Counted from the first letter of the stretch, positions 20,228 through 63,861 are shown. The stretch: DNA of 64,000 bases from Candidatus Chisholmbacteria bacterium RIFCSPHIGHO2_01_FULL_52_32 (GCA_001816585.1 MHCJ01000003.1:426971-490970), one strand, 5' to 3'. Translations and numbers: made by a program. The notes: generated by a model not told the origin, from the sequence alone.

Positions 20228-22084
20228 ATGATCGTGTTTATTCTCATCGTATTAATATATTGGTTGGGTCGGCAGATTATTGACCGCTGGTTTTGGCAGC
20301 TCCCTTTGCTCTACCGCGCGCCTGCTGCCTGGGGTCTCGGGTTTCTCCTCCTCTACCCATTAGGGGTCCTCAATATTTTTCTGTTTGAAGGTCAAACGCA
20401 TATCTACCAGAATCATATCGGAACCGGACTTGGTCTTTTGATTGCGGCGAACGTGGCACTCACGTTCCTTCGATACTTATCGCCTCTTCCCAAAAGAAGG
20501 GTACAGTCAAATGAAGGCCATCATCTCCCATTTGGCTTCTTCCTTCTTCTTCCTGCTGCTGCGTTTCTTCTGTTCCTCAATCTTGGGAAAGCCGATATCG
20601 CTTCCGATGAGCGGGAAATAGGCTATCGAGCGTATGACCTCGTCGATGGAATTAAGGCCGGCCGAACTGCCTACGCCATTTCGTTTAACGATCATGCGCC
20701 TCTCGGTAATTACATCCAGCATTTTGTCCTCAATGCACTCGAACCCAACGGATTTGAAAATCTTTCCGACGGGGAACTACGGTTTGCCGGAGCGTTTCTT
20801 GCTCTTCTTTCCCTTTGGGTTTTTGGGATAATCGCTGCGGACTGGTTCTCGCGGGAAACTGCGTTTCTTTCAAGTCTTCTGCTTGCCACTATGACCCCGT
20901 TCCTTTTTTCCGGCAGACTTGCCATTCCCCAGGACCTGTCATTTTGGAACTTTTACTTTTTGCTTTCTCTGTTGAGCTTTTCCTGGTGGTTTTCCACCCG
21001 GAAACGGCAGGCTCTTGTCCTTTCCGCAATCCTGACGGGAGCGTTTGCTCTGATTAAATTCACGGGCCTTGTCGTTCTTCCCCTCTATTTTATCTGGTGG
21101 CTTGCGTCCACTCGAATCTTCAGGCCTTCCTTGCGCTTTTTCGTTATCGTCCTTATCACCATCTCCCCTGTCATCTTTTTCAATATCGGCGCGTATATCA
21201 CCACAGGTTTCGTTGACGTTCCCACAGCTTTGGTTCTGCGTACATTCGGAATCCCTGTCAGGACATCGATGGCGTTTGAGAATATTTACGCCGGCAGAGG
21301 AAACAACCCCCTCTCCCTTCTTCCTCCGCTGGTTCTCACGCTATCGGATTTGTTCTACCCTGTTTTATTATTCTCTCTGCTCTTTCTGGGGATAGTTGGC
21401 TTTTTCAGATTCCGTAACTTACCCCGTTCTTTTTGGATATTTTTCTCCGCCTTTTGTGCCTTTTTGTTTTTCTTTCTTTTTACCGGATTTCGCACATACT
21501 ACCTGACGTTCACTGCGTTTGGCTTGGTTGCTATGGCTGCCTCCGGTATTGCCCTCTTCCGTCTGCCTATTCGACGGTTGGTTGTCGCGATCCTGGCTAT
21601 CGCCTCACTTGGCTACGGCCTCTCGTCTCTGCACTTCCTTAAGGGTCCGCAGATCCTTACGGGAGGAGAGTACGGACGGTCGTCAGAAGCTATTCCACCG
21701 TTTACGGTTTCGAGAACGTATTCTCTTTCAATCCGACAGTGGCTCAATGCCGTTGGCTGGAAAGAGGTCAAGAAGAAGGCTTCAACGATTGTCGGCAACC
21801 GCGTGCTCGTGGTTGACCAGCGTCTCAATTCCGAACGAGCGTTTTGGTACCTCCAGTTTAACCCCGTACGCGCTCATTTCGACCCGACCTATCAACCCCC
21901 CATCCGTATGCTCTTTTCCTCCGATTTTCACTGTAATGAAGCGTTCATCGTGCTCGCATTACCTTCGAGCTCTTCACTCTGCAATACGACTCTCTATCCT
22001 TTGGAAATTATCACTTCGATTTACGGAGAACCCGGTCTTACCTTCTTCGGAGTCCGTGAGGATGTGTTCGTTCTCAAGAAATAA
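20228..22084 (+). CDS. GT-C glycosyltransferase, ArnT/PMT-like (GT39/GT83-type)
   Basis: 618 aa with about 12 or more TM helices. First-loop motif IASDEREIGYRAYDL (the DE..YA motif of ArnT/PMT enzymes). Confidence 0.6.
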   Translation: MIVFILIVLIYWLGRQIIDRWFWQLPLLYRAPAAWGLGFLLLYPLGVLNIFLFEGQTHIYQNHIGTGLGLLIAANVALTFLRYLSPLPKRRVQSNEGHHLPFGFFLLLPAAAFLLFLNLGKADIASDEREIGYRAYDLVDGIKAGRTAYAISFNDHAPLGNYIQHFVLNALEPNGFENLSDGELRFAGAFLALLSLWVFGIIAADWFSRETAFLSSLLLATMTPFLFSGRLAIPQDLSFWNFYFLLSLLSFSWWFSTRKRQALVLSAILTGAFALIKFTGLVVLPLYFIWWLASTRIFRPSLRFFVIVLITISPVIFFNIGAYITTGFVDVPTALVLRTFGIPVRTSMAFENIYAGRGNNPLSLLPPLVLTLSDLFYPVLLFSLLFLGIVGFFRFRNLPRSFWIFFSAFCAFLFFFLFTGFRTYYLTFTAFGLVAMAASGIALFRLPIRRLVVAILAIASLGYGLSSLHFLKGPQILTGGEYGRSSEAIPPFTVSRTYSLSIRQWLNAVGWKEVKKKASTIVGNRVLVVDQRLNSERAFWYLQFNPVRAHFDPTYQPPIRMLFSSDFHCNEAFIVLALPSSSSLCNTTLYPLEIITSIYGEPGLTFFGVREDVFVLKK

Positions 22085-23219
22085 CGAGCTGGGCAAACCT
22101 TGAAACGACTTTTCTCATCTCAAATTCCTTAACCCTCGTTTTCCCCTCTTTGATCAGTTCTTCGCGGAGTACCGGGTTTTTGAGGATAGTCGCGACAGCG
22201 CTCCCAAGCTTTTCAACGACCGCATTTTCTTTATGTTGCGGGATGAGCAAACGCTGCTGTTTTTTCGTGAGCACTGCTCTTGCACCAATCGTGTCGGTTG
22301 CTACGATCGGAACCTCCATGGCCATTGCTTCGAGAAAAACCCGTCCGAATTCTTCCGTGCGCGAGGGCATGATGAGGACGTCTGCAACTGCAAGGTATTG
22401 CGGGATTTTTTGATTCGGAACCGGACCGACCACCGTTCCTGTATCCCCAAGCGTTCCTTTCCGAAATTCGACTTTCAATGACTCCAAGAGAGGACCGCCG
22501 CCAACGATAAGAAGCTGTGCATTTCCCAATTTGGTCTTTAATAATCTTGCGAAGTCGGGTAACCGATCTGCTCCTTTCCTTTCAGACAGGTGGTGAAGGA
22601 AGAGCACTACCTTTTTACCGTTGAGGTTGAAGCGCTTCCGAAGTTCATCGGTTGAAACGTTTTCTTTCTTAAACCTTGAGAGGTTAATCCAGTTCGGGAT
22701 GACGAGAATCTTTCTTCGGTCGACACCGCAGCTTTTCTCAAAGTATATCTTCATCGCTTCGGAGCAGGTCACTAGGCGGTCAATTGCCTTCAGAGCAATT
22801 CTCCAGGGCCAGTCTTTCGTGAGCTTCACTTGAAGGTTTTTAATATTGAGTGGTTGTTCGTATAAGTGAAGTTTCACGCACAGCCAAAGGTAGGTCTTCC
22901 CACCAAAAAGGGTTGTCACGCATTTCGCGATCAGGCTGCTTACGACGGCATAATGACAGTAAAACGTCTTGTATCCAGCCAAGCGGAGTGTCAGGAACAC
23001 CAAGAACCGTTCGAGCAACCGCAGGGGTAAGACATGCATCCGCTGTCTATAGCATCCTACGTTACTGCTGATGTCCCCACTCCCTGCCCAAGTTTCGGCA
23101 AAAAGAAACACCTCATATCTTTTCCCGATTTCCTCAATCCCCTCGTAGATATGCGGGTAGTGAGAGCTTTCCCTCAAGTCGAAACGGGGAATGACGAAGC
23201 AGATTTTTTGTTTCTTCAT
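22074..23219 (-). CDS. Glycosyltransferase family 4
   Basis: KICFVIPRFD..., C-terminal VADVLIMPSRTEEFGRVFLEAMAMEVPIVATD. Confidence 0.8.
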   Translation of the reverse strand: MKKQKICFVIPRFDLRESSHYPHIYEGIEEIGKRYEVFLFAETWAGSGDISSNVGCYRQRMHVLPLRLLERFLVFLTLRLAGYKTFYCHYAVVSSLIAKCVTTLFGGKTYLWLCVKLHLYEQPLNIKNLQVKLTKDWPWRIALKAIDRLVTCSEAMKIYFEKSCGVDRRKILVIPNWINLSRFKKENVSTDELRKRFNLNGKKVVLFLHHLSERKGADRLPDFARLLKTKLGNAQLLIVGGGPLLESLKVEFRKGTLGDTGTVVGPVPNQKIPQYLAVADVLIMPSRTEEFGRVFLEAMAMEVPIVATDTIGARAVLTKKQQRLLIPQHKENAVVEKLGSAVATILKNPVLREELIKEGKTRVKEFEMRKVVSRFAQLVIS

Positions 23220-25102
23220 CGTTTCTGGGCTGCAATCATCATTAACGAGCCAAACTCTTTATAACCGGGAATCCAACCTGTCTTCTCATCAACTGCCGTT
23301 AACAGGCGATAGACGGGAAGAGGAATGTCTTTGATGAAGGTTTGTACGAGAGTTACCAACTGACGCTTTAGAGAGATGTGTTTGAGGATAAAGCCGCTTT
23401 CGATAAGCTGTCGAGTGACCATACGGTGGTTGATCAGACATTCACGGGGGTCGTCGGGTGCCGGAATCGCCTTCGTTCTGTCCCGGTAAAAGAGGAAACG
23501 GAAGGAATTGTGCTCGATCAAAAGGAGCATGCCTCTAGGTTTTAAGATCCTGCAGCTTTCTCGGATTGCTTTGTCGGTGTTTAAGGTGTGGTGGAGCGAA
23601 GCGATGAAAACGACCGCATCGGCTGAATCGGCCCGAATCGGAAGCTTATCCATGTCTCCGACAAGATTGGTGTTGAGCGAAAGCGATCTGCGGAGTTTTA
23701 CCATCAGGGTTGAGATATCCAAGCCCACAACTGACAGCCCCCCGAGCTCCTGTTTTACGATCGCCATCACCACGCCTGCGCCGCCACCGATATCGACCAC
23801 TTTTTGGTCTTTTTTGATATACCCCCGGAGCCATTGGACAAGTTTCGGATAGTAAACGATTTTGGATGCATCCGTCTTCGATTTCTCAATCTCCAATTGC
23901 GAGGAATCGTAATGCGCGATATTTGCCCGTTTCATCGCGGCAGGGCCATCGCGCTTTTTCGTTTCAATGAGAACGTCGATCCATTGTTTTTCCGGTCTCT
24001 GATGAAGCATTGCCAGAGCCTTTTTTTTCACTTCCCTTCCGAAGCTCTCCCGTAAAGGCGCATCTTCCAAAAGGGCCCTCATTTTTCTTGCCAGGGCTGC
24101 TTCATCGCCCGGCTCGACCAAGAATCCGTTCCTGCCTGGCTCTACAAGATCCTGTGCCCCGCTCACCCTTGTTGCAATGACGGGTAGACCCATCAGCATC
24201 GCCTCGAGGAGAGCGATGCTTGACCCTTCGTATTTCGATGATGAAACATAGACCTTTGAGCGTGCGAGCGCATCAATCACTCCTTTTTGTGCGCACTCGC
24301 CAGCAAACCGGATGTTCGCTGTAAGATCCAATCTTTCGGTTTGCCGTTTAAGTATTTCAAGCCTCGGACCGGCTCCAATGATCTGAACGTTGAGGTTCGG
24401 GATATTCCCCTTCAGTTTTGCCAGTGCTTCGATGAGAGTCGGGAAGTCTTTCTGTTCGGTCAGGTTCCCTGTGCTTATTATGTGAATATCCTTCTTTGGG
24501 CTGGCTTTTTTGAGGAAATTTGTTGAGGGCGGGACGATGACCGTATGGATCGGAATTCCGGGAGGAACGAATGTTCGAACAGATTGTTCAATACTTCTTG
24601 TCACTGTCCTGATGCTGTCCGCTTTCCTTAATAACCATTTTCCCAGATGAAAAAATGCTCTGTTCTCAAATGATTCCGTCCTCCATGCCAGGCTACTGAA
24701 GTAATCGTTGTGAACCTGGATATTTACCGGAACCCTCCATTTGGCCTTCAAAAGAAGGGCTATTGCGGCACAGATAAATGGATCTTGGGCACTTACGACA
24801 TCGACTTTCTTCTGACTGAAGAGTTTCGCCGCAATGCGAAGTGCATCGGTTGTATACCACCACCGTGAACCGGAGTTTGTCGGTACAATTGTGAGGTTTC
24901 CCTTACGTACCTCATGGGTTATTCCGTCTCTTTTTTTGGTCAACACGATGATGTCAAGATGCCCAAGCTGTGAGGCGTACCGACGATGGCGATTTATGGA
25001 GTCTCCCGATTTAGGCAGAAGAAGATTCTTCTCTAAGGAGATGAACAAGACGTTCAATGTTGGTTCTCCAACCGAATCTTTGTTGTGCGTTTCTTTTTGC
25101 AT
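23216..25102 (-). CDS. Bifunctional glycosyltransferase family 4 / class I SAM methyltransferase fusion
   Basis: N-terminal GT4, about 370 aa (SSSKYEGSSIALLEAMLMGLPVIATRVSGAQDLV). C-terminal MTase, about 250 aa (VVDIGGGAGVV...VVFIASLHH...LKPRGMLLL). Its 5' end overlaps the upstream gene by 92 nt, so the start is uncertain. Confidence 0.75.
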   Translation of the reverse strand: MQKETHNKDSVGEPTLNVLFISLEKNLLLPKSGDSINRHRRYASQLGHLDIIVLTKKRDGITHEVRKGNLTIVPTNSGSRWWYTTDALRIAAKLFSQKKVDVVSAQDPFICAAIALLLKAKWRVPVNIQVHNDYFSSLAWRTESFENRAFFHLGKWLLRKADSIRTVTRSIEQSVRTFVPPGIPIHTVIVPPSTNFLKKASPKKDIHIISTGNLTEQKDFPTLIEALAKLKGNIPNLNVQIIGAGPRLEILKRQTERLDLTANIRFAGECAQKGVIDALARSKVYVSSSKYEGSSIALLEAMLMGLPVIATRVSGAQDLVEPGRNGFLVEPGDEAALARKMRALLEDAPLRESFGREVKKKALAMLHQRPEKQWIDVLIETKKRDGPAAMKRANIAHYDSSQLEIEKSKTDASKIVYYPKLVQWLRGYIKKDQKVVDIGGGAGVVMAIVKQELGGLSVVGLDISTLMVKLRRSLSLNTNLVGDMDKLPIRADSADAVVFIASLHHTLNTDKAIRESCRILKPRGMLLLIEHNSFRFLFYRDRTKAIPAPDDPRECLINHRMVTRQLIESGFILKHISLKRQLVTLVQTFIKDIPLPVYRLLTAVDEKTGWIPGYKEFGSLMMIAAQKR

Positions 25103-26174
25103 TCAGTTTTATTTGTTTGGTCAATTCCTCATCAGTTAACATCCTTTTTATCGCGTCTGAAAGGTCTTCCGTCGCTGTCTTTGTCAGGAGTCCTGTCTTT
25201 TCATGCTCGATCACTTCTCTGTTCCCAGGAATATCTGAGGCAACCACCGGAACTTCGGAGAGCATTGCCTCGATTATAGCATGGGATAATCCCTCGTAAC
25301 TTGAGACGAGAACGAAGATTTTTACCATTCTCAACCGTTGCAAATAGGTCTCTCTTTCAAGCCGTCCGACCAGTTTCACCTTCTTTGAAAGATTCAACGT
25401 GTTGATCATCTCCAGTAATTCCTTTGTGGCGTTTCCGTCACCAATGATTTGGAGCTCGAGTGTCTTGGCAAGATCTTTCGGTACTCGTTTGAGAAGGTCG
25501 TTAAATGCCGAGATGAGAAGCCCAAACCGTTTATGCGGAACAAGTCTTCCGGAGCTCAGGATTATGGTTCTTTTGCTCTGGGTAATTCTTTTTGGTCTTT
25601 GGATTTCTACCGCATTATTAATAACCTCGATTTTTGATTCCTCAATCCCGTAAAACTTCGTTACGATGTTTTTTAAATACACCGATGGAACAACGATCTT
25701 TTTGGCAGTCTTTAAACTCTGTTTTTGCAACCATTGCGCAACTAGAAAAAACAGTGGTTTCCTTGATGCTCCCAGAAATTCCTCCAGCTTGAGATTTGTC
25801 ATTCCTTTGCGGTGGGCCTCCTCCCAAACCTCGTCACCGACAAACTTGAGTATCAGTGGTTTTCCGGTGAGTTTTGCGATGAGCGCTGATGCAAACCCGA
25901 CCACAACAGCTCCTTGGGTATAGATCACATCGTTTCTCCTTGCTTCTTTACCTATTGCTGAAGCCAGCGCTGTTTGCCTTCGGATTGTTCCAAAAAATTC
26001 ATTATGAAGCGGAACCGCCATAATCTTTACCGCCTCAACTTTCTTCGGCTTCACTCCGAAGGTAACGATTGTCAGTTCGTGCTTTCCGGCAAGTCTTTTG
26101 GCAAGGTCGAAAGTATAGGTTGCCGGTCCGCCGATCTGGGGAGGGAAGATGGGAGTCACGATCAATATCTTCAT
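25011..26174 (-). CDS. Glycosyltransferase family 4
   Basis: KILIVTPIFPPQIGGPATY; C-terminal EGLSHAIIEAMLSEVPVVASDIPGNREVI. Confidence 0.8.
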   Translation of the reverse strand: MKILIVTPIFPPQIGGPATYTFDLAKRLAGKHELTIVTFGVKPKKVEAVKIMAVPLHNEFFGTIRRQTALASAIGKEARRNDVIYTQGAVVVGFASALIAKLTGKPLILKFVGDEVWEEAHRKGMTNLKLEEFLGASRKPLFFLVAQWLQKQSLKTAKKIVVPSVYLKNIVTKFYGIEESKIEVINNAVEIQRPKRITQSKRTIILSSGRLVPHKRFGLLISAFNDLLKRVPKDLAKTLELQIIGDGNATKELLEMINTLNLSKKVKLVGRLERETYLQRLRMVKIFVLVSSYEGLSHAIIEAMLSEVPVVASDIPGNREVIEHEKTGLLTKTATEDLSDAIKRMLTDEELTKQIKLNAKRNAQQRFGWRTNIERLVHLLREESSSA

Positions 26175-26194
26175 GGTTAAGTTGAAAAAAAAGC

Positions 26195-27385
26195 TTAGGA
26201 TACCCTCCCATCGGATATTGATGTAAGCATGTTTTCCACCTGATCGGTAATATGATCCCAGGTGTATCGCTTTTGAACCAGTATTCGTCCGTTGGTTCGA
26301 TGCTTTTGGTACAGCGCGGCATCCGTAAGAATGCGCTCCATTGCTTTGGCCGCCTCCTTTGGGCGGTCCGGTTCAACGAGGAGTCCGGTTTCCCCGTCAT
26401 TGATAAAATCCGTGATGCCGCCAATCGGAGTTGCGATGACCGGAAGCCCAATTGCCATTGCCTCCAAGAACGATACGCCAAAACCTTCCTTCCGTGAAAG
26501 CCTGATAAACAGATCGGCACCTGCAAGGAGTTGCGGAATTTTCCGATTTTCTACTCTCCCAAGAAGCTTGACCTTTTGCTCCAATTTGTACTTTGAGATT
26601 TGTAATTTGAGATTGTTATAGAGTGGTCCGTCCCCCGCGATGACGAGTTCCCAGTTGAGCGAGGATGGAAGCAAATAAACCGCATCAATCAGCGTGTCTA
26701 GGCCATTTCTCGGTATCAAAGCGGATGTGGTTATAATCCTTACCCTTCTCTTAACTTTTAACTTTTCACTTTTCACTTCCTCGACCTGAGCTCGGTACGA
26801 AGGTTTGAACTTTGTCGTGTCCACTCCGTTGGGAATGATAACCGACCGTCTTGCACCGAGTTTGTCCGCCTGTTCCTTCGCATACCGACTAACACAGGCA
26901 ACGACATCGGCCCGCTTGAGCGCAAAAGACACTAAAGGAGTGAGCAGGTTCGGGAGTAGATTCTTAAACGGAATCAGGCCTTTCATCACCAACTCTTCCT
27001 TGTAGTCGAGGGGATTCTGGGCCGTCATATAGAGCGGCCTTTTCAAGTGCCCGGCAAGGATGGCCGCCACGACCCCTTGAGGGAATACCTGCTTTGCCCA
27101 GACGAGATCAATGCTCTTGCCCCGGAGTACTCTCTTGATTTGGATGGGAGCAAACATGATATAGGAAAGTCCATAGAGATTGGGGATTTCCGGAAATTTG
27201 ATGGGGTGGATCGTTACGTTATGCGGAAACGTTTTTGCAATTTCGGTGGAATGACCAACAAAGACATCGAATGTGTGATCTCTCTCCGCTAACCGTTTGA
27301 TCAGCTCAACTACATGAACCTCAGCTCCACCAAGCCGTTCAGGGAGAAGATCAGCAGCAACCACAGCAATATGCATACTTTGCAT
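26195..27385 (-). CDS. Glycosyltransferase family 4
   Basis: HIAVVAADLLPERLGGAEVHV; C-terminal EGFGVSFLEAMAIGLPVIATPIGGITDFI. Confidence 0.8.
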   Translation of the reverse strand: MQSMHIAVVAADLLPERLGGAEVHVVELIKRLAERDHTFDVFVGHSTEIAKTFPHNVTIHPIKFPEIPNLYGLSYIMFAPIQIKRVLRGKSIDLVWAKQVFPQGVVAAILAGHLKRPLYMTAQNPLDYKEELVMKGLIPFKNLLPNLLTPLVSFALKRADVVACVSRYAKEQADKLGARRSVIIPNGVDTTKFKPSYRAQVEEVKSEKLKVKRRVRIITTSALIPRNGLDTLIDAVYLLPSSLNWELVIAGDGPLYNNLKLQISKYKLEQKVKLLGRVENRKIPQLLAGADLFIRLSRKEGFGVSFLEAMAIGLPVIATPIGGITDFINDGETGLLVEPDRPKEAAKAMERILTDAALYQKHRTNGRILVQKRYTWDHITDQVENMLTSISDGRVS

Positions 27386-27416
27386 TGTACCACTCGATAA
27401 GATGAGGGGCTTTTGT

Positions 27417-27590
27417 CTATTCTTCCTTGAAGTCTTTGGGGAGCATGATGGGGATGCCGTCTTTCACTTCAAAAACGCGTTTGCACTTTACGCACTTGAG
27501 ACTTTCTTTCTTCCCCTTTTTCGTGTACTTGATATCTCCGTGATCATCGGGACAAGCAAGAATCTCCAAAAGCGTTTTATCGAGCGGCAT
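27417..27590 (-). CDS. Trm112/YcaR-like (DUF343) small zinc-ribbon protein, 57 aa, absent from the ORF track
   Basis: My own translation of the minus strand gives MPLDKTLLEILACPDDHGDIKYTKKGKKESLKCVKCKRVFEVKDGIPIMLPKDFKEE. This is the classic LLeiLaCP....C..C...ypi.dGIPvmL Trm112 pattern. ATG at 27590 and TAG at 27417. It overlaps the upstream GT4 stop by 14 nt. Confidence 0.6.
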   Translation of the reverse strand: MPLDKTLLEILACPDDHGDIKYTKKGKKESLKCVKCKRVFEVKDGIPIMLPKDFKEE

Positions 27591-30337: not shown

Positions 30338-30375
30338 ATAGTAAATTGCCGACCTGGTAACTTTAATGATACTTC

Positions 30376-30444
30376 TTAATTAAACACTACAAACGGTTGT
30401 TGGTGCTGGGCGAAACCAGCGCCGCCGGTGATAAGAACTTTCAT
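30376..30444 (-). pseudogene. 5' remnant of a second NAD-dependent epimerase gene (22-codon ORF MKVLITGGAGFAQHQQPFVVFN*)
   Basis: A GC-rich Rossmann N-terminus MKVLITGGAGF is followed by a premature stop. It sits 38 nt upstream of, and out of frame with, the intact epimerase start. Its codon usage differs from the intact gene. Confidence 0.5.
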
Positions 30445-30484
30445 GAATTACGAATTATGAATAATGAATTATGAATTAAGAATA
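30443..30484. repeat. Heptanucleotide tandem array (ATGAATT-like) x6, immediately upstream of the epimerase-fragment ATG
   Basis: atgaatt acgaatt atgaata atgaatt atgaatt aagaata. Confidence 0.8.
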
Positions 30485-30500
30485 AGATCGATATAAGTGC

Positions 30501-31595: not shown

Positions 31596-31604
31596 AATAG
31601 CAGA

Positions 31605-31639: not shown

Positions 31640-31656
31640 AGCGTAATCGTTCAGAT

Positions 31657-36790: not shown

Positions 36791-36796
36791 AAGAGA

Positions 36797-56147: not shown

Positions 56148-56746
56148 CCTATTGTTACCGAAAAAGATTGAAGGCGTTCCTTTAACTGGGCCAAGTCTTT
56201 GTAAAGAATCGCTTTCATTCCGGCAGATTTGGCGACTTCTACAAATTTTTCAACATCATCAATAAAAAGACACTCATGGGGTTTGACTCTGAGTTTCTTT
56301 GCCGCCAGGAGAAAAATCTCTTTCTCGTCTTTTGTCATTTTCACTTCATTGGAGAGAATGGTAACGTCAAATTCTTCCAATATTCCAAGCCTTCGGAGTA
56401 TGGGGACATGCTCATTGGTGGTATTTGTAATCACTCCTAATTTGTACCGTTTTAGGGAAGCGACCAAACCCATCATCTCAAGGTCAACGCTTACCAACTT
56501 TTCGTAATCATTAATCCATGCCTTTAACAGGTCGTTTACGGACATTTCTTTTTTATACTTTTTGGCTAATATTTGCATAACCTGTCGAGCGGTCATCGCC
56601 CCCTTACTCCAAGGTATGAGTTCTCTATTCAGATCCAGCCAAAATTGTTTTTTGTCAGAAGGTTTGAGAATTGCAAGAGTCCTATTGAGAAGCGGTTTCC
56701 AATCTATTATCACCCCTCCGAGGTCGAAGATAATTGCTTTGATCAT
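56144..56746 (-). CDS. HAD-superfamily hydrolase (subfamily IA; putative sugar-phosphatase)
   Basis: MIKAIIFDLGGVII (motif I DxG), LGVITNT and FIDD. Confidence 0.7.
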   Translation of the reverse strand: MIKAIIFDLGGVIIDWKPLLNRTLAILKPSDKKQFWLDLNRELIPWSKGAMTARQVMQILAKKYKKEMSVNDLLKAWINDYEKLVSVDLEMMGLVASLKRYKLGVITNTTNEHVPILRRLGILEEFDVTILSNEVKMTKDEKEIFLLAAKKLRVKPHECLFIDDVEKFVEVAKSAGMKAILYKDLAQLKERLQSFSVTIG

Positions 56747-57831
56747 GGCTGCCCGTAGCTTCTATCGTCTAACAAAGCGACGAACTTTTCGCAGAATGTC
56801 TGTTTTGAAAATTTCCCACTCGTCTCAATGGCATTCCGGGAAAGATTGTCCGTAAGCGTTTGGTCCTTCATCAATCGAAATGTCTTTTGTTTGAGTTCAT
56901 CGACTGTTTCCCAAAGCAAACCGTTCTCCCCGTCCGTCACGATTTCCGGTTGACCGCCTTTGTTGATAACGACCGGAATGCACCCGGCACTCATTGCCTC
57001 GGCGGTTGCGATACCGAAGTGCTCAACCCGTTCCGGGTGTTTTTGTTGATCCACCCCAAACCCAGCGGCGTGCCAGAAGAGTTTTGCCTTGCCATACGCT
57101 CCTTCGAGCGCCTCGTGAGAGACGTCCGGGGTGATTGTTATCGGATAACCACTGGCATCTTGAAGTAATTTTTCGAGAAGCGTTTTTCCCTCTTTGCTGC
57201 TTCCGACGAGGTGAAGTTCCCAACCGCTTAGGCCGGTGTCAACCATTTCCTTAAATGCGGCGACCAGGACATCCTGCCTCTTGTGATGGAGCGTTTCGGT
57301 AAACCTCCCGACGGAGAGAATGATGTTTTGTTTCTTTGTTTTCTTAGGCGAGATGTTGAGCGGTGGGTAGAGGATTTCGGAACGGACGTCATATTCCTTA
57401 TCGATTACCCTTTTTGTGAAGAGCGAATTGCAGATGATGTGGTGGATGTAGCTTAATTTGATGTGGTTTAAGATCGAGGTTCCATGAACATTGGTGAAGG
57501 GAATTTGGAAATGGAGGATGTTGTTTTTGGAGAATAATGGGGGAATGCTTCCGTCGCTTAAAAAAAAGACCACATCGTATCGGTGGGTTAATTGTCTTTT
57601 TTGAAGCCATTGTCCTCTTTTCGAAAAGAGCTCGTACCCCTTTGTATCTATGACGATTGGGTCGATGTTGATCCCCAGGAATTTCTTGATTGTTTTTTTG
57701 ATGGTCTCATCTTTCCAAAAGAGGTTCACCTGAAAGCCCTGTTTCAGTAAGCATTCAATCACGGAAGATGTATAGACTTCTCCCCCGCCGATTGTATCGA
57801 GATATGGATCGAAAACAGCTGCTTTCTTCAC
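56743..57831 (-). CDS. Glycosyltransferase family 1/4
   Basis: AAVFDPYLDTIGGGEVY; C-terminal EHFGIATAEAMSAGCIPVVINKGGQPEIV. Confidence 0.75.
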   Translation of the reverse strand: MKKAAVFDPYLDTIGGGEVYTSSVIECLLKQGFQVNLFWKDETIKKTIKKFLGINIDPIVIDTKGYELFSKRGQWLQKRQLTHRYDVVFFLSDGSIPPLFSKNNILHFQIPFTNVHGTSILNHIKLSYIHHIICNSLFTKRVIDKEYDVRSEILYPPLNISPKKTKKQNIILSVGRFTETLHHKRQDVLVAAFKEMVDTGLSGWELHLVGSSKEGKTLLEKLLQDASGYPITITPDVSHEALEGAYGKAKLFWHAAGFGVDQQKHPERVEHFGIATAEAMSAGCIPVVINKGGQPEIVTDGENGLLWETVDELKQKTFRLMKDQTLTDNLSRNAIETSGKFSKQTFCEKFVALLDDRSYGQP

Positions 57832-58667
57832 GGCTTTCTTGCTACTGCAACGATGAGGGCAGCATAGGTATAGGGAGAAATACTGTTTAACAACCTTTTT
57901 GCCATTCTTCCGAACCCATTGAGTTCAAAAATCTTTCCGCTATGGCTTATAAGTTTTGGAAAGTCCAGCCAAAGCGCGATGCTTCTCTCTTTTGAAAGAT
58001 CGTCTTTCGGATAAATCCTGATATTAATAAAACCGGCATCCTTCATAAACGCGAGGAGCTCGTTTTTCGTGTAGCGATATTCGTAAAATCGCATTTTTGG
58101 TTGCTGCCTGTTGTTCCGCAATCCGAGGGCCTCAACCATCAATCGCGCAGGAGTTTTTATAATGGTTTTTACTTGGTTTAAGGTACGAACACATCTACGG
58201 AGGAAAGAATCAAACGGCACTTCTATAATCGCCGTTCCGCCACGGCGCAGGACACGATACGCTTCTCCAAGCGCCTTTTGCGGTCCTTCCTCAAAATGTT
58301 CAACCACCCCCAAGGAAAGGTAGGAATCGAACGACCCATCGGGATAGGGAAGGGCTTTAATATCCGCCTTCTCCACTTTTGCCTGTTTGAAAAAGGCCTT
58401 CAGCTTTTTTATGGCGTAATCGTTTGCGTCAGCCCCTTCGATGTTATAACCCTGTTTGGCAAGGGTTATTACCCACTTTCCCATCCCACAGCCGGCTTCA
58501 AGGATCTTTCCTCTTTTTGACAAGTACTTTTCAAAAATGGGCTTGAGCCCATCGGTGTCTACGAGTTCCAGTTCCTGATCTAAAGAAGTCTTTTTCCAGT
58601 AGGCGTCCCACTCCTTGCCGATATCCGGAATATACTGCTTAAAGCTCATCGGAAATCTCCCTGTCAA
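57828..58667 (-). CDS. Class I SAM-dependent methyltransferase
   Basis: ILEAGCGMGKW; SLGVVEHF; LRRGGTAIIEVP. Confidence 0.8.
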   Translation of the reverse strand: MTGRFPMSFKQYIPDIGKEWDAYWKKTSLDQELELVDTDGLKPIFEKYLSKRGKILEAGCGMGKWVITLAKQGYNIEGADANDYAIKKLKAFFKQAKVEKADIKALPYPDGSFDSYLSLGVVEHFEEGPQKALGEAYRVLRRGGTAIIEVPFDSFLRRCVRTLNQVKTIIKTPARLMVEALGLRNNRQQPKMRFYEYRYTKNELLAFMKDAGFINIRIYPKDDLSKERSIALWLDFPKLISHSGKIFELNGFGRMAKRLLNSISPYTYAALIVAVARKP

Positions 58668-59445
58668 GGTCCTGGTACGTTTTTTTCATGGTCTTTTCCT
58701 GTTGCATTTCCCACAACCATACCATGATGAGGAATTGATTGAAGGCCTGATACAGTATTTCGATCCATCCTCTGATCCCGTCGCGCCAGCCACTTTCCTT
58801 GACTCCCCGAAACCAGAGCTCGCGAAAGGGAGCAGTAAGAAGATGTCGAATCTTTACCATTGGATGCTCTTCCTTCAGACGAAGCTCAGCCTCAAGTTGC
58901 GTATAACGGATCGTCTTCTCAAGCATCCAGAGAATGCCTCTGTGGGTGAAGTGGAGAAGTTCGCCTTTGAGCGTCCCCACCGATCCTTCAACATTTGGGT
59001 GTTCGTGGAGTTCTCCGGCCCAACCCTTGAATGCCTGTTTTTCTATGAGTCGATGTTGATCATCCGGATACCACCCGCCATAGCGAAGCCACCTCCCCAA
59101 GATCATGTTTTTGTGGGGAATGCGGTAAGACCGATACAAAGACTCTTTCTGTTTTAACAGGGCTTGGATCTCTTCCCGCAATTCTTTTGAGACGCGTTCA
59201 TCCGCATCAACATAGAAGATCCACTCACCCTTTGCTTCTTTCGCACCTACATCCCGTTGTTTGGGAAATCCCTGCCAAGGCGTACGTATAATCTTTGCCC
59301 CTTTCGTCTTTGCGATCTCAAGTGTCCTGTCCGTTGACCCTGCGTCCACAACAACGATCTCATCCGTCCATGAAAGCGACTGCAGGCATCCAGGAAGAAA
59401 TCCTTCCTCGTTGAGGGTGAGAACGATTGCAGAAATAGCTTTCAT
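58639..59445 (-). CDS. Glycosyltransferase family 2
   Basis: ISAIVLTLNEEGFLPGCLQSL...IVVVDAGSTDRT...FYVDADE. Confidence 0.8.
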   Translation of the reverse strand: MKAISAIVLTLNEEGFLPGCLQSLSWTDEIVVVDAGSTDRTLEIAKTKGAKIIRTPWQGFPKQRDVGAKEAKGEWIFYVDADERVSKELREEIQALLKQKESLYRSYRIPHKNMILGRWLRYGGWYPDDQHRLIEKQAFKGWAGELHEHPNVEGSVGTLKGELLHFTHRGILWMLEKTIRYTQLEAELRLKEEHPMVKIRHLLTAPFRELWFRGVKESGWRDGIRGWIEILYQAFNQFLIMVWLWEMQQEKTMKKTYQDLDREISDEL

Positions 59446-61151
59446 CTGACTACGAAAATTGTACTCATTGCATTGCTAAATATTTTGCTTATAGGAAAGC
59501 CATCTTTCTCCAGTTCCTCGAGCATCGCCGTATCACCTTTGGAATCGCTGTAGATATGAGTAATTTTAGCATCTTTCAGTATTCTTTCTCTCCTGTCGAC
59601 AGGAGTCTCTGGGGAAAAAAATTCTTCCACCGCTTCCAGGCGATATTGATATGGGGTGTCGGTTAAAACTGCGAACGTTTCTCCGGAAAAATAGGTCCTT
59701 CGTCCTCCGAGTCCCGGAATCTTCATGAGGTAGCGATGCTGACTGGAAATCGGGGTTAATACGACACTTTCCTCAGGCAGTGTGTTGACAAATTGCATCG
59801 CCTCTACTTCTTTAATCGGGACTGTGACTGATTCTTCCTGATTTGCCAAAATAAATGTCTTGATTGTAGTCGGGATGGAGAGGATAAACAGCAGGATAAG
59901 AAGCGCAGTATGGGGTTTCTTTTCCGTTATTTCGACAACGAGCAGAATGCTGAGTAACATGAGCGCGTAGGGGCTGAACTGGATGGTGTTGTACACCGAG
60001 ACCGGCTGGACGAATAGGAGAGGAATTCCCAGAGAAAAGACAACAGCACCGATAAGGAAGAAATCCATCGTTGATGCCCTTGAGAATCTTAAAATTTTCT
60101 TGCCAATCCAGATAAACGCAAGAATCCTTACCCCCAAATTTCCGACTAGATAAAGGCCGAATTCTTCAAGATTGATCTGAATAAATCGCGGTATGTTCCC
60201 CGCTGCCGTGTAATGTTGGTAGAGTTGGGTAAGGTGCTCGTTGTAAAAACGACCGCTGTCTTCCACCATCCTTCTTAAGATCCATCCGGGAAGGAAAAGA
60301 AGCGGCGGTTTTGTTGTTGAAGAAGTCCAGAGGGTAAAGCCAAGAAATAGCCCGGTTGCAATCAGCGTCGGCAAGAGCATCTTCCGACTTCGCCGTAGTA
60401 CCAGTTCCGGAACAAGCGCCGTCCAAAGTGCTCCGACCGCCACAATTCCGGCATATGCCTTTACTGCTGTTGAGAGTCCGAGGAGCAGACCGGAAAATAT
60501 GGCGTCGTTCTTTCGCCCATCCTGCACGAAGCGGTGGAGAATGCTCACGCCAAACAGGAAGATTGAGAATCCCAGTACCGTATGCACATTGGTCAGCTGG
60601 TCAAACGGCTGATCGAGCATGAATGAGTTCGCAAACCATGGCGTGTTTTTTCCGAGGAGAAGCGGTATCGTGTAGGCTGCACTGCCGCCGAACACCGTAA
60701 ACGCCGCTCCCGTAAGTCCCTTCCATGTTGATTTTGTCAGGCGTTTTGCCAACATGAACGCGGAGAGCGCAAAGAGGAAGGCAACTACGGGTGGAGCAAG
60801 ATACATGTAGACCGTCTCGACCGATAGGCCACTGCCCTGATGCACCAGCATCAAGATGAAGTCCGAAAGAAAGTGGTAGTTCAAAAGCGGTACACCAGCC
60901 ATTCCCGGGTTTTGCGGTGGGAACGACCTTGCCAGTTCATGGATCACGGCGAAGTGCCAGAGCGTATCGTGAAGCATCGGGATGTGTATTCCGTCTCCTT
61001 TAAACCAAGCGCCGGAGAGGAAATGCCAACTCTGGGAGAGGCTTGCTACAAGCAAAAACACACCAACAGAAAGGTGTTCGATCCATCTTTGTCTTTGGTT
61101 CCCTTTTTGATTACTCGTTGATTTTGGAGATGATGATCGATTCATTTTCAA
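59442..61151 (-). CDS. Large polytopic membrane protein, uncharacterised family (putative GT-C-like), paralog 1
   Basis: 569 aa. Loop motif MLHDTLWHFAVIHELARSFPPQNPGMAGVPLLNYHFLSDF. Multi-TM N-terminus plus a C-terminal soluble domain. Confidence 0.4.
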   Translation of the reverse strand: MKMNRSSSPKSTSNQKGNQRQRWIEHLSVGVFLLVASLSQSWHFLSGAWFKGDGIHIPMLHDTLWHFAVIHELARSFPPQNPGMAGVPLLNYHFLSDFILMLVHQGSGLSVETVYMYLAPPVVAFLFALSAFMLAKRLTKSTWKGLTGAAFTVFGGSAAYTIPLLLGKNTPWFANSFMLDQPFDQLTNVHTVLGFSIFLFGVSILHRFVQDGRKNDAIFSGLLLGLSTAVKAYAGIVAVGALWTALVPELVLRRSRKMLLPTLIATGLFLGFTLWTSSTTKPPLLFLPGWILRRMVEDSGRFYNEHLTQLYQHYTAAGNIPRFIQINLEEFGLYLVGNLGVRILAFIWIGKKILRFSRASTMDFFLIGAVVFSLGIPLLFVQPVSVYNTIQFSPYALMLLSILLVVEITEKKPHTALLILLFILSIPTTIKTFILANQEESVTVPIKEVEAMQFVNTLPEESVVLTPISSQHRYLMKIPGLGGRRTYFSGETFAVLTDTPYQYRLEAVEEFFSPETPVDRRERILKDAKITHIYSDSKGDTAMLEELEKDGFPISKIFSNAMSTIFVVR

Positions 61152-63057
61152 AGACTTTTGTGAGGGTTAATCCATTAGGATTGAAGGCTCGATTTTCTTC
61201 TTGTGTGAGCAGAAGATAATCGATTGAGTTGGTATCGACGATTCTGTTTCGTAACCCAGGATCGGAGTTACGGAAAAAGGATCGGAGCTCTGCTTCTCTT
61301 CCCTCGTAATCCTCTCCGGTGATCCGAGAGAAGGTGTTGGCGGAGAAATAGGTCGGTCGCTCTGATAACGCCGCAACCAGGGCCGAGGAGAGATTGATCT
61401 TTGACGGATAGAGAAGGATTATGCTTTCAGGAGGGGTCTCCTTCTTTAGGTAATCGAACGCTTCGAGGGTTAAACGGGGGACGAGAAACGGTTGATCGTT
61501 GAAGCGATCCACAATGCTGGTTGCATTCGAGGGAACTGACAAAACAAGAAGGATAATCGAAAGAGCAATCGCAAGCTTGCCGTTGGTTGCTTGAAGAATC
61601 TGTTTCAGGATGAGTACGGTGAATATGGAAAGCATCACTAACGAGTAGGGTCCGAACTGGATAATGTCATATGACATCCTTCCTTGATTGAAAAGCAACG
61701 GCAATGACAGTGAAGCTGTGGTTACCGTGAGCATGAATATTCCCGCGAGAGAGGGTCTTTTTACAATCACAATCACGTATACGAGGCCGAGTGTTTTCAC
61801 CCAAAGGTTACCAAAGAGAAATATCAGCATTTGCTTGAAGTTTACAATCGCCAATCGTAAGACGTTATGGGTTGCCTGGTAGTGCTGTTCTAATAAGAAA
61901 TACCTGGGGACATTGTAGCGGTCCGGATCCTCGACCATCCGCTTCAATAGCCAACCGGGTACCCAGACGAGTCCGGCGGCAGTTTTTGCATCATAAACGG
62001 GAATGAAAATAACCGCAGAAACGAACCCGGCGAGAAACCAAACTCCCCACAAATCATGGCGTTTGTTTTTCAGTGACATCCACAGCGCTGCGATAGGCAA
62101 GGCAAGTAGCATGATGATCCCTCCCCAAGCCTTAAAGCCGATTATGACGCCGAAGGTAATCGCCGTGAGCATCAAGATTACCATGTTTCTTTTCTTTTCC
62201 AAAATCATCAGTCCCAAAAGACCAGCAAGCATCAATGGAAAAACGACAACCGCATGGGGATTCTGCATGAGATCGACAATGGGATCCAACATGAACGTAT
62301 TCGCTGAAGGATGGAATTCCGGGCCCCGGAAAAATTGCAGAGCCCATGAGGCATTCCCCGCAAAAAGAGTCAGGATGACTGCGGCATTGGCGAGCCATTC
62401 TGAGCGGCTGAGGCGCCGTGCAACCACAAATACGCTGAGGCTTAAGAATGCTGAGACAGCAGCAGGGGTAAGCCGATAGTACAGCTCGAATGTCGATAAC
62501 GGAAGGTAACGTGCCATCGATGCCAGGGTGAGGTCAAGCAGGAAGTGATAATTCTTTACGAGTACGGGTGCAAATCCAGGATGTCGCGGGGGGAAATTTT
62601 GTTTTAATTCATCGATGAGGAAGATATGCCATGTCGAGTCATGGAGGCTCAACTGTCCAAATTGGAGTCCTTGGGCCGTCCAAACCCCGCTTCGGAAAAG
62701 GACTTGTCCCTGGATTACGATCCCCACAATGGCAAGGATAAGGAAAGCAACTTGTGCTTTCGCTAGTGATCTTGTCCTCGGCTTCCACTCCTTAAGCCAT
62801 CGCCCTCCTTCAACAAAACCAAGCATGAAGAACGGTAACTCGGCAACCCAGAATGGTAGTCCAAGGAAGCGGATGAGAAAGATCAACAGCACATAGCAAA
62901 CAAATCCGAATGTAGTTCCAAGGAATATCCGCTCTGTTACCCGCAGGTTGATGGTCTTTGGGAGAAGCCGCATACCAGGCAAGAGCCAGATCATTACGGC
63001 GAACAGACCCGCCAGAAGAGCGTTGGTTAGCGTAAGGATTAGGTTTTCTCCGAGCAT
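61111..63057 (-). CDS. Large polytopic membrane protein, uncharacterised family (putative GT-C-like), paralog 2
   Basis: Loop motif LSLHDSTWHIFLIDELKQNFPPRHPGFAPVLVKNYHFLLDL. I chose the ATG at 63057 (MLGENLIL) to avoid a 117-nt divergent overlap with the + gene at 63118; the track start is 63234. Confidence 0.4.
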   Translation of the reverse strand: MLGENLILTLTNALLAGLFAVMIWLLPGMRLLPKTINLRVTERIFLGTTFGFVCYVLLIFLIRFLGLPFWVAELPFFMLGFVEGGRWLKEWKPRTRSLAKAQVAFLILAIVGIVIQGQVLFRSGVWTAQGLQFGQLSLHDSTWHIFLIDELKQNFPPRHPGFAPVLVKNYHFLLDLTLASMARYLPLSTFELYYRLTPAAVSAFLSLSVFVVARRLSRSEWLANAAVILTLFAGNASWALQFFRGPEFHPSANTFMLDPIVDLMQNPHAVVVFPLMLAGLLGLMILEKKRNMVILMLTAITFGVIIGFKAWGGIIMLLALPIAALWMSLKNKRHDLWGVWFLAGFVSAVIFIPVYDAKTAAGLVWVPGWLLKRMVEDPDRYNVPRYFLLEQHYQATHNVLRLAIVNFKQMLIFLFGNLWVKTLGLVYVIVIVKRPSLAGIFMLTVTTASLSLPLLFNQGRMSYDIIQFGPYSLVMLSIFTVLILKQILQATNGKLAIALSIILLVLSVPSNATSIVDRFNDQPFLVPRLTLEAFDYLKKETPPESIILLYPSKINLSSALVAALSERPTYFSANTFSRITGEDYEGREAELRSFFRNSDPGLRNRIVDTNSIDYLLLTQEENRAFNPNGLTLTKVFENESIIISKINE

Positions 63058-63117
63058 TTCTCCTGCTATTATAAACAACTGTTGGCCGATTGAGTGAGAG
63101 GTTTTTGAAGCAAAGTT
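63058..63117. promoter_or_regulatory. Divergent intergenic region at the head of the 41-kb minus-strand gene block; TATTATAAA element
   Basis: 60 nt between the divergent ATGs at 63057 (-) and 63118 (+). Confidence 0.25.
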
Positions 63118-63861
63118 ATGGCTATGCGAGCGGATCTTTTCCCTGAGATGTATCGGCTTGAGGAAACCTATTGGTGGCACGTTGCGAAACGGCGGCTTGT
63201 CCTTACGCTCCTTACCCCTTTTCTTCGCAACCATGCTCCTGGCGCTTTTCTTGATGTCGGTTGCGGAACGGGGATGATGCTTAAGGATCTCTCAGCTCTC
63301 GGGCGGGTGGTTGGGATTGACGGAACCATGGACGCTCTGCGGTATTCCCGTCAACGGGGAGCGTCCTGTGTCATCCTTGCTGATTGTTCGCGCCCCTTCC
63401 CCATTCGTTCGTCAGCTATCCATGTGGTGACGATGCTCGATGTTTTGGAGCATCTCGATGATGACGATCTGCCCATTTCCGAAATTCATCGCCTCTTGCG
63501 TCCGTCCGGAATGTTTGTACTTACCGTTCCGGCCTATCCTTTTCTTTGGACGTACTGGGATGAAATTCTCGGACACAAACGGCGTTATCGAAGAAGTGCT
63601 CTGGTCAAAAAACTTGAGCGCAATGGATTCTCCGTTCTCCGACATTCCTACTTCTATTCATATCTTCTGCCTGTGGCTATTCTCTTTCGCGTCACCAAAT
63701 CACTTCTTGGGGTCAACGTGAAGATGCGCTCCGACTTCATTGCTCTCCCACGATGGCTGAACCGCTTCCTGCTTTCTATGTCTTATCTTGAGCAGTACGC
63801 TACGCGTTTTGTGCGAATTCCTGCGGGACTTTCGGTCATCTGCGTCTGCAAGAAGATTTAG
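63118..63861 (+). CDS. Class I SAM-dependent methyltransferase
   Basis: FLDVGCGTGMM; VTMLDVLEHLDDDD; LRPSGMFVLTVP. Confidence 0.8.
   Translation: MAMRADLFPEMYRLEETYWWHVAKRRLVLTLLTPFLRNHAPGAFLDVGCGTGMMLKDLSALGRVVGIDGTMDALRYSRQRGASCVILADCSRPFPIRSSAIHVVTMLDVLEHLDDDDLPISEIHRLLRPSGMFVLTVPAYPFLWTYWDEILGHKRRYRRSALVKKLERNGFSVLRHSYFYSYLLPVAILFRVTKSLLGVNVKMRSDFIALPRWLNRFLLSMSYLEQYATRFVRIPAGLSVICVCKKI

Follow-up and report, generated by a model that had tools for sequence, protein, structure and literature searches.

We analyzed a 64,000-nucleotide stretch of DNA from Candidatus Chisholmbacteria bacterium RIFCSPHIGHO2_01_FULL_52_32 (GCA_001816585.1, MHCJ01000003.1:426971-490970), referred to below as the window. 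An unbroken minus-strand chain of open reading frames (ORFs), traced from the ORF list and by start-codon inspection, runs from position 63057 to 22074; this block comprised 35 genes in 40,984 bp, with a coding fraction of 99%. No plus-strand gene was found inside it in the independent NCBI, ENA, JGI, and Logan calls on matching contigs. Judging by gene content and order, the block is probably the core of a cell-envelope glycosylation supercluster typical of the Microgenomates lineage and expressed as several units. The matching record was MHCM01000003.1, in which the record position equals 637,477 minus the window coordinate and the block occupies 574,420-615,403. Three of the block proteins were identical to entries A2900_03160, A2900_03225, and A2900_03250 of a Ca. 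Chisholmbacteria metagenome-assembled genome (MAG) from the Rifle aquifer (Microgenomates, Candidate Phyla Radiation (CPR)).

Glycosyltransferases (GT) were encoded by 26 of the 35 block genes, 13 being of the GT-C type, five GT2, and eight GT4, as assigned by Pfam, NCBIfam, and fold evidence. The GT-C set consisted of a YfhO-family protein, six PMT_2/PMT paralogs (a to f), a GT87 protein and its MptA_B paralog, a PIG-V/PMT_2-like protein, a protein weakly related to PTPS, and the pair TM648/TM567. The other nine genes encoded two short-chain dehydrogenase/reductase (SDR) epimerases, two methyltransferases, a HAD phosphatase, an EamA transporter, a DUF2304 protein, a Trm112-like protein, and the small protein orf113. 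Polytopic membrane proteins numbered 14. The features of the locus, read in the direction of the block, are as follows (aa, amino acids; nt, nucleotides; SAM, S-adenosylmethionine; TM, transmembrane).

63118-63861 (+): class I SAM methyltransferase, divergent from the block (Pfam)
63068-63073 (-): candidate -10 box TATAAT, 10 nt before the first ATG and followed by AGGAG
61111-63057 (-): TM648, first block gene, 13 TM segments, predicted GT-C fold (AlphaFold2 and Foldseek); no Pfam or NCBIfam family
59442-61145 (-): TM567, paralog of TM648 with 31% identity; weak PMT_2 match; 35-nt overlap with the upstream gene
58639-59445 (-): GT2, soluble GT-A type resembling GmaR/SunS/TarS; ATGA overlap
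57828-58649 (-): SAM methyltransferase
56743-57831 (-): GT4 glycosyltransferase; GTGA overlap
56144-56746 (-): HAD phosphatase; ATGA overlap
53886-56126 (-): YfhO-family GT-C (Pfam, 94 bits); internal heptamer array at 54627-54663
53021-53917 (-): GT2 of the Glyco_tranf_2_3 type
51349-52977 (-): PMT_2 GT-C paralog a
49685-51343 (-): PMT_2 GT-C paralog b; (TTCAGTT)x4.6 at 50969-51000, in the loop after KELF
48153-49688 (-): PMT_2 GT-C paralog c (PMTc); ATGA overlap; perfect (CAGCCAT)x4.9 at 49309-49342, in the same loop as in b
47809-48150 (-): orf113, small conserved membrane ORF resembling the middle segment of the PMT_2 paralogs
46157-47791 (-): PMT_2 GT-C paralog d
44790-46160 (-): GT87/MptA_B-family GT-C; ATGA overlap
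43364-44806 (-): MptA_B-family GT-C, paralog of the GT87 gene with 33% identity; precomputed MptA_B_family match
41773-43323 (-): PMT_2 GT-C paralog e, the most divergent
40145-41776 (-): PMT_2 GT-C paralog f; ATGA overlap
39396-40148 (-): GT2_40, a GT2 resembling AglJ/DPhHxTase/PpgS; ATGA overlap
37612-39366 (-): putative GT-C with 10 TM segments; weak PTPS_related match, a member of its cluster being annotated as PTPS-related
36815-37615 (-): GT2_37, paralog of the GT2 at 58639-59445; ATGA overlap
36796-36826 (-): heptanucleotide array (ATTAATC)x4.4, ending 5 nt before the ATG at 36790
35732-36790 (-): GT4_36 glycosyltransferase
34574-35722 (-): PIG-V/PMT_2-like GT-C with 8 TM segments
33683-34567 (-): EamA (DMT) transporter, candidate flippase/sugar transporter (111 bits)
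32707-33630 (-): GalE-like SDR epimerase
32027-32710 (-): GT2_32, best match PpgS (NCBIfam, 168 bits, cut-off 370); ATGA overlap with the epimerase
31657-32013 (-): DUF2304 small membrane protein, the usual partner of a PpgS-type GT2 (Pfam, 83 bits)
31604-31637 (-): heptanucleotide array, approximately GAACATT x4.9, ending 8 nt before the TTG start at 31595
30501-31595 (-): GT4 glycosyltransferase with a TTG start
30338-30500 (-): largest spacer, 163 nt, holding (TAATTCA)x5.9, a relic ORF, and TATCAT
29312-30337 (-): SDR epimerase/dehydratase, annotated by NCBI as CDP-paratose 2-epimerase
28587-29270 (-): SAM methyltransferase
27577-28590 (-): GT4; ATGA overlap
27417-27590 (-): Trm112p-like protein of 57 aa with a strong AAGGAGG site
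27384-27392 (-): extended -10 box TGGTACAAT, candidate internal promoter, 7 nt before the ATG at 27376
26195-27376 (-): GT4; internal heptamer array at 26751-26778
25011-26174 (-): GT4
23216-25048 (-): GT4-methyltransferase fusion
22074-23219 (-): GT4, last block gene; ATGA overlap; its stop overlaps the convergent gene by 11 nt
20228-22084 (+): membrane protein of 618 aa with no family, convergent, at the 3' boundary of the block

The first-pass annotation had described about 38 genes, all on the minus strand and beginning at 63234 (or 63057), with pervasive ATGA overlaps and gaps under 30 nt. This layout was confirmed as real, although slightly overstated. The strand assignment was borne out over the whole block, and the gene count came to 35, including two small genes added from outside calls: the Trm112-like gene (27590-27417, 57 aa) and orf113 (48150-47809, 113 aa). 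The first gene starts at the ATG at 63057, encodes 648 aa, has TATAAT and AGGAG upstream, and is agreed on by all callers; 63234 was discarded, as a gene starting there would overlap the divergent methyltransferase by 117 nt. Outside gene calls also settled the start of the second gene (61145) and that of the GT2 at 53021-53917 (53917), and gave 56126 or 56045 for the YfhO gene. An apparent 191-nt gap at 27386-27576 was rejected as a spacer: the Trm112-like gene occupies the region.

Overlaps of four nucleotides were found at 11 of the 34 junctions, ten of them ATGA (59445, 56746, 49688, 46160, 41776, 40148, 37615, 32710, 28590, and 23219) and one GTGA (57831). Longer overlaps of 11-38 nt were present at six junctions, gaps of 2-29 nt at ten, gaps of 40-61 nt at six, and the largest gap, 163 nt (30338-30500), at one. 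Genes therefore overlapped or lay within 30 nt of each other at 27 of the 34 junctions; the tight packing stood, but ATGA alone accounted for 29%, for which "pervasive" is a generous word. Across the first 20 genes (63057-36815) no gap exceeded 43 nt, and among the last 15 genes spacers of 24, 52, 61, 163, 41, and 40 nt were found. A Shine-Dalgarno (SD)-like motif was identified at about 13 of the 35 starts and at only two of the 11 four-nucleotide overlaps. The 35-gene same-strand run is not random, because about eight strand switches occur in the 22 kb of the window that flank the block.

To find relatives of the block, 185,579 species-representative genomes were scanned with a pattern from an alignment of four PMT_2 paralogs; at least 581 were confirmed, and the best 80 were studied. 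These 80 belonged nearly all to Microgenomates (Chisholm-, Gottesman-, Levy-, Curtiss-, and Roizmanbacteria); several third-party annotation (TPA) MAGs among the relatives bear obviously generic taxon labels. Layout statistics were calculated for the 50 loci with more than 18 kb of sequence, 21 kb being fetched for each. Per 21 kb, the median was seven GT-C genes and 4.5 PMT_2 paralogs; the longest same-strand run had a median of 11.5 out of 16 genes, and 16 of the 50 loci were single-stranded throughout. The block had been called extreme even for polysaccharide loci; within Microgenomates, such arrays are the norm. The recurring gene order was GT2, methyltransferase, GT4, (HAD), YfhO, GT2, several PMT genes, GT2, PTPS-related, GT2, GT4, and PIG-V, and it was conserved across genera at 36-66% protein identity. 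In the related locus L112, the GT4/epimerase module and the convergent 3' boundary were also conserved, the boundary being marked by convergent membrane proteins of 610-626 aa with no family. Some relatives break the array by opposite-strand genes or by a 745-nt spacer.

In the related loci, 80% of adjacent gene pairs were co-directional. A four-nucleotide overlap was possible at 31% of 851 same-strand junctions of the relatives, as compared with 32% in the block. In most groups of prokaryotes, about 15% of co-directional pairs overlap, and the maximum is about 30% (Huber et al., PMC6728339). Since rates and gene order match those of the relatives, the architecture and the overlap habit are a property of the lineage. 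In the literature searched, neither this island nor any GT-C array of Microgenomates was described; the nearest reports were remarks on multiple copies of dolichyl-phosphate mannosyltransferase in Peribacteria and on GT87 in Saccharibacteria.

The paralogs within the block are old. PMT_2 proteins a, b, c, d, and f shared 27-45% identity, and e shared about 23% with d in the alignment; identities were 31% for TM648/TM567 and 33% for the GT87/MptA_B pair. Pfam scores were 33.6-54.3 bits for PMT_2 in the six genes (cut-off 26.1), 94 bits for YfhO (cut-off 28.5), and 37.7 bits for GT87 (cut-off 25). The Asp-Glu pair of the first extracytoplasmic loop (D34-E35) was invariant in all six PMT_2 paralogs. 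PMT_2 d (46157-47791) and f (40145-41776), with 45% identity overall, were almost the same over about 65 aa (FAVRFPSALAG...KELFTINKTIKQFNNIAIAALAALLLAISPWH), loop included, which suggests gene conversion between the paralogs or strong constraint. An ORF of 112-115 aa between PMT_2 genes, corresponding to orf113, was also present in the related loci L030, L109, and L111. Its sequence is similar to the central part of PMT_2 (LHN[RK]..F..Y..HF..FL plus a TM helix), and it may be a stand-alone fragment kept as a subunit.

The AlphaFold2 model of TM648, built from a 21-sequence alignment, had a mean predicted local distance difference test score (pLDDT) of 90.6, and its Foldseek matches were STT3, DPY19, AglB, AftA, and PglB (E from 1e-9 to 5e-6). 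TM-scores with STT3, AglB, and PglB were 0.41-0.50, and 13 hydrophobic segments were recognized. By this model, TM648 is a GT-C fold protein of an unnamed family, the profile of which recovered 997 cluster representatives at E<=1e-30 among 1.84 billion. Neither TM648 nor TM567 carries a WWD or W[WYF]D[YWF]G motif; TM648 was rejected as an oligosaccharyltransferase, its WWDYG motif being absent despite the 13-TM GT-C fold and the C-terminal soluble domain. An hhalign comparison of TM648/TM567 with the PMT_2 paralogs showed no relation (probability 7%).

A putative polyprenyl-phosphate module was also encoded. Along its full length, GT2_32 matches PpgS, the mycobacterial polyprenyl-phospho-GalNAc synthase, and its gene lies between that of the GalE-like epimerase, which it overlaps by ATGA, and that of DUF2304; together with DUF2304 it forms what we take to be the PpgS/Rv3632 arrangement. 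GT2_40 overlaps the last PMT_2 gene (f) by ATGA and had its best matches with AglJ and dolichyl-phosphate hexose transferase (55-61 bits, below the equivalog thresholds); no match was found for it among PDB sequences. The EamA/DMT protein (33683-34567) is a flippase candidate by family.

The block is part of a wider island. The entire 64-kb window consisted of glycosylation genes, and the island extends over at least 78.6 kb, or about 6.8% of a 1,158,385-bp contig, with its right end not reached. It contained at least 41 glycosyltransferase genes, at least 17 of them of the GT-C type by family match or fold. Upstream of the block, a single inverted methyltransferase gene (63118-63861) is followed by at least eight genes in the block direction; this region, read in L017 (1-9934, equal to window ~63,124-73,057), encoded two PTPS-related membrane proteins, a Wzx-like Polysacc_synt protein about 6 kb upstream of the block, three GT2, and a YfhO split into 388 and 375 aa. 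Downstream, about 20 more island genes occur in mixed orientation. Aminotransferases and RmlC were encoded in the window flanks, and a left extension of about 5.5 kb (L025, 1463-6990, equal to window about -5,527 to 0) added a DegT aminotransferase, two epimerases, and an ABC-2/ABC pair, beyond which unrelated genes follow. The idea that the whole glycosylation programme is governed from one promoter does not fit an island of at least 79 kb with further genes upstream, mixed-orientation genes downstream, and many transcription units besides those of the block.

The inverted methyltransferase divides two long same-direction runs and has a 4-nt convergent overlap with the upstream GT2 in L017. 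Its position beside TM648 was conserved in L017, L109, L110, and L111 (36-56% identity), and it may serve as a transcriptional divider. The cumulative GC and AT skews change sign at about 33 kb, in the middle of the block. This flip was rejected as a replication landmark, the skew at four-fold degenerate sites being the same on both sides (-0.055 vs -0.038); it coincides with the change from membrane-protein to soluble-protein genes.

A perfect TATAAT (63073-63068) was found 10 nt before the ATG of TM648. In the relatives L109, L110, and L111 (36-56% protein identity), this hexamer recurs 6-10 nt ahead of the orthologous start. The promoter very probably sits in 63058-63117, the divergent region to which it had been assigned, and conservation of the hexamer in the three relatives speaks for that placement. 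Within the window, strong -10-like hexamers accompanied the starts of five of ten run-initial genes as compared with five of the 34 genes inside the block, with 0.07 per gene expected from background. Among the relatives (80 loci), 55% of run-initial and 24% of internal genes carried one 5-11 nt ahead of a candidate start (Fisher p = 2e-10). The pattern suggests that mRNAs in this lineage are leaderless or have very short leaders. A consensus scan gave no excess of two-hexamer promoters. TATAAT or TACAAT was observed 6-10 nt before the run-initial starts at 1663, 13945, 20179, and 63057 in the window, at 3589 in L109, and at 10001 in L111. Inside the block, TATCAT occurs in the 163-nt spacer, 28 nt before the ATG at 30337.

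Terminator-like hairpins were at chance level (25 vs 23.7 and 24 vs 24.0 in shuffled controls), and none was found at the 3' end of the block or at the other transcription-unit ends scanned. Their absence inside the block is uninformative, because the block's own 3' end has none either; the earlier remark that no obvious terminators were visible is no evidence for a single transcript, the scan being blind here. The convergent gene pairs of the window (492/512, 10455/10490, 15774/15814, 18793/18827, and 22074/22084) overlap by 11-41 nt or lie 34 nt apart and therefore leave no room for intrinsic terminators. Judging from this spacing, either termination must work differently in this organism or transcripts must overlap as antisense. 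A search of the window with Rfam gathering thresholds gave no match, including no riboswitch, EAR, or JUMPstart-like family. Very long operons usually have an antitermination feature; in the window, neither a NusG paralog nor an element of the ops/JUMPstart-like or EAR-like kind was found.

Heptanucleotide repeats are a further feature of these loci. Seven period-7 arrays of at least four copies were detected in the window by Tandem Repeats Finder, all inside the block (26751-26778, 30443-30483, 31604-31637, 36796-36826, 49309-49342, 50969-51000, and 54627-54663), with 0.01 expected from Markov surrogates. Four were coding, and three abutted starts, ending 0-8 nt before the start codons. In 1.49 Mb of related loci, 95 period-7 arrays were found as compared with at most ten for any other period; 81 of 96 classified arrays lay in coding sequence. 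They concentrated in homologs of PMT_2, YfhO, PTPS-related, GT2_37, and GT4_36 genes at about one per 10 kb, and ORFs with no homolog in the window had 0.13 per 10 kb. The arrays were short (median 4.7 copies). Coding arrays clustered at about 0.22 and 0.72 of the PMT_2 gene length and encoded recurring peptides, e.g., KISNIKY....

A PMT_2 gene of the related locus L029 carried a perfect (CAGTCAT)x5.0 array in the same loop as (CAGCCAT)x4.9 in PMTc; that every copy differs by the same one base implies turnover within the arrays. L029 also had an array at the orthologous GT4_36 start, and L112 had (TAATCAT)x4.6 located 3 nt before the orthologous epimerase, so the downstream spacers are conserved features. 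Copy numbers were identical in all near-identical contigs from several samples; no frameshifted "off" allele was found, and no gene was split at the ~81 coding arrays in the 80 related loci. The array (TAATTCA)x5.9 (30443-30483) runs directly into a relic ORF (30444-30376, minus strand, 22 codons), which reads MKVLITGGAGFAQHQQPFVVFN (MKVLITGGAGF...) up to its stop. It is what remains of the N-terminus of an SDR epimerase, and 38 nt separate it from the ATG of the intact epimerase gene at 30337. The relic may have arisen by duplication and decay, or it may be a leader ORF upstream of the epimerase. No description of heptamer repeats in these loci was found in literature searches; precedents are the simple sequence repeat (SSR) contingency loci in glycosyltransferase genes (PMC2651432) and the 7-bp promoter repeats of Haemophilus hmw (PMC8262952).

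The following pathway would account for this gene set. Nucleotide sugars would be prepared by cytoplasmic enzymes, namely the two SDR epimerases together with the aminotransferases and RmlC of the flanks, and loaded onto polyprenyl phosphate by small GT2 enzymes (39396-40148 and the PpgS-like 32027-32710 with DUF2304). The lipid-linked sugar would then be moved outward by a transporter or flippase, for which EamA is the candidate, and the 13 GT-C transferases would attach such sugars, on the outer side of the membrane, to acceptors in the envelope, whether proteins, glycopolymers, or both. The eight cytoplasmic GT4 and the methyltransferases would build and decorate a lipid-linked or cytoplasmic glycan.

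Transcription would start at the conserved TATAAT just upstream of 63057, and the first two thirds of the block (63057 to ~36815, 20 genes) would probably be covered as one or a few units. In the downstream third (36790-22074), extra starts are probable at 36790, 31595, 30444/30337, and 27376. The eleven four-nucleotide overlaps may allow coupling by termination-reinitiation within the units, which would suit an array with about 13 SD-like starts among 35; this type of coupling at ATGA overlaps has experimental support (Huber et al. 2019, PMC6728339). In total, the block is probably transcribed not as one unit but as a few long ones, perhaps three to six.

The one or few very long transcripts previously proposed agree with the tight co-directional packing, but the extreme form, a single 41-kb, 35-gene mRNA from the promoter at 63058-63117 with translational coupling throughout, is unlikely. 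It would fit the 99% coding density, the tight junctions (27 of 34), the conserved TATAAT at the block start, the rarity of strong -10-like hexamers within the block, the chance-level hairpin counts, and the lack of Rfam elements. It is at odds with the seven spacers of 40-163 nt, which are concentrated in the last third, with the heptamer arrays abutting three internal starts, two of these positions being conserved in relatives, with TGGTACAAT lying 7 nt before the ATG at 27376, and with the relic ORF inside the 163-nt spacer. Relatives break the array, no antitermination feature was found in the window, and the terminator scan, blind at the 3' end and at other unit ends, lends the single mRNA no support. 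The opposite view, that the run is functionally meaningless and reflects the gene packing and strand bias of a streamlined genome with independently expressed genes, appears highly improbable. All junctions in the window are indeed tight, even the overlapping convergent ones, and 80% of adjacent pairs in the related loci are co-directional; however, packing alone would not explain gene order kept across genera at 36-66% protein identity, the ~8 strand switches of the neighbouring 22 kb, or the depletion of -10-like elements at internal genes.

We consider it quite unlikely that the locus is an ordinary single-polymer polysaccharide locus (O-antigen, capsule, or teichoic acid, with Wzx/Wzy or ABC export) that is merely long. 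The many GT4 and GT2, the epimerases, aminotransferases, and RmlC, the Polysacc_synt gene ~6 kb upstream of the block, and the ABC-2/ABC_tran pair just left of the window would be expected of such a locus. However, no initiating phosphoglycosyltransferase, Wzy, ligase, or chain-length regulator was detected among the window ORFs, 13 GT-C have no role in the classical Wzx/Wzy or ABC pathways, and the exporters lie outside the block in other transcription units. A phase-variable surface glycan, in which heptanucleotide arrays slip at replication and toggle individual enzymes, is likewise very improbable. Seven arrays in the block against 0.01 expected, 95 in 1.49 Mb against at most ten for any other period, a unit length not divisible by three, the ongoing turnover indicated by perfect arrays that differ by one base per copy in the same PMT_2 loop of two species, and the precedents in SSR contingency loci and Haemophilus hmw (PMC2651432, PMC8262952) all favor slippage. 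Nevertheless, copy number did not differ among contigs from several samples, none of the ~81 coding arrays in the 80 genomes interrupts its gene, the arrays are short, and their occurrence in the same protein loops with recurring peptides suggests constraint at the protein level.

Several points also weigh against the preferred reading of the block as the core of a multi-unit envelope glycosylation supercluster. Acceptor, sugar, and glycan are putative, and the transcription-unit boundaries are all predictions from sequence motifs, made for a lineage with no mapped promoters. The internal -10-like hexamers (5 of 34 genes) were not significantly above background (~2.4 expected), and the signal role of the start-codon heptamer arrays is a proposal. 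The PMT_2 profile matched no solved structure among PDB sequences, and GT2_32, at 168 bits, falls below the 370-bit equivalog cut-off of PpgS. A GtrA-type flippase was not found in the window, nor was an initiating phosphoglycosyltransferase of the WecA/MraY or WbaP type found by Pfam in any window ORF. A bolder extension, which we hold to be doubtful, is that the locus would be a Microgenomates-specific envelope glycosylation machine with a dozen or more serial GT-C, punctuated by previously undescribed 7-nt-periodic cis-elements. The start-abutting arrays would then be internal transcriptional or translational initiation signals in SD-poor, possibly leaderless, long polycistronic units, and the loop arrays would slip, diversifying or switching the glycan coat of episymbiotic cells.

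Members of the CPR, whose genomes are minimal, are thought to be attached to other cells in life, and how they construct their surface is largely unexplained. The locus is noteworthy for its scale and composition, with 13 serial GT-C in an island of at least 79 kb on a 1.16-Mb contig, conserved across Microgenomates. Given this recurrence, extracytoplasmic glycosylation of an elaborate kind appears to be a core trait of the group and not an accessory one. The locus offers a defined gene set, an unnamed GT-C family with about 1,000 representatives, and a test case for the transcription and translation of very long SD-poor arrays. A single operon, if true, would rank among the longest in bacteria in number of genes; the evidence rather points away from it.

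Among known long operons, the Bacillus subtilis fla/che operon spans ~27 kb with just over 30 genes, and the eps operon is also very long; Bacteroides capsule loci with UpxY and enterobacterial rfb/cps loci with RfaH-ops are further very long operons. The block resembles them as a long, co-directional, tight cluster for a surface structure. They differ in having mapped transcripts, those of the block being predicted, and usually an antitermination device, of which none was found here. Heptamer repeats are also known from cyanobacteria as the short tandemly repeated repetitive (STRR) sequences. As in STRR and Haemophilus hmw (PMC8262952), tandem 7-nt units occur here, some directly upstream of surface-structure genes; in contrast, the unit sequence varies by array, most arrays lie in frame in coding loops, and they are short, with no length polymorphism seen among contigs.

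The enzymes themselves have counterparts in several systems. With GtrA/GtrB/GtrC, CsbB-YfhO (teichoic acids), and ArnC/ArnE-F/ArnT, the block shares small GT2 resembling polyprenyl-phosphate-sugar synthases, a DMT transporter, and GT-C that include a bona fide YfhO and ArnT/PMT-like PMT_2 proteins. Those systems have one GT-C per module, whereas the block has 13, with no GtrA detected. With PMT/GT39 and bacterial Pmt, it shares PMT and PMT_2 Pfam matches above the cut-off and the invariant Asp-Glu in six paralogs; it differs in showing no sequence-level match to any solved PMT or ArnT, and its six paralogs are tandem, diverged (23-45% identity), and lack a MIR domain. The mycobacterial and corynebacterial GT-C set (MptA/MptB of GT87, PimE, AftA-D, Emb, Pmt, Ppm1, and the PpgS-Rv3632-Rv3779 galactosamine module) likewise comprises many serial GT-C using polyprenyl-phosphate sugars; its likeness here includes GT87/MptA_B, a PpgS-like GT2 beside DUF2304, and TM648, which matches AftA by fold. 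Unlike mycobacteria and corynebacteria, CPR bacteria have no arabinogalactan or mycolate envelope, and the matches found here are below the equivalog cut-offs. In Actinobacteria such genes are scattered, whereas here they are gathered in one block.

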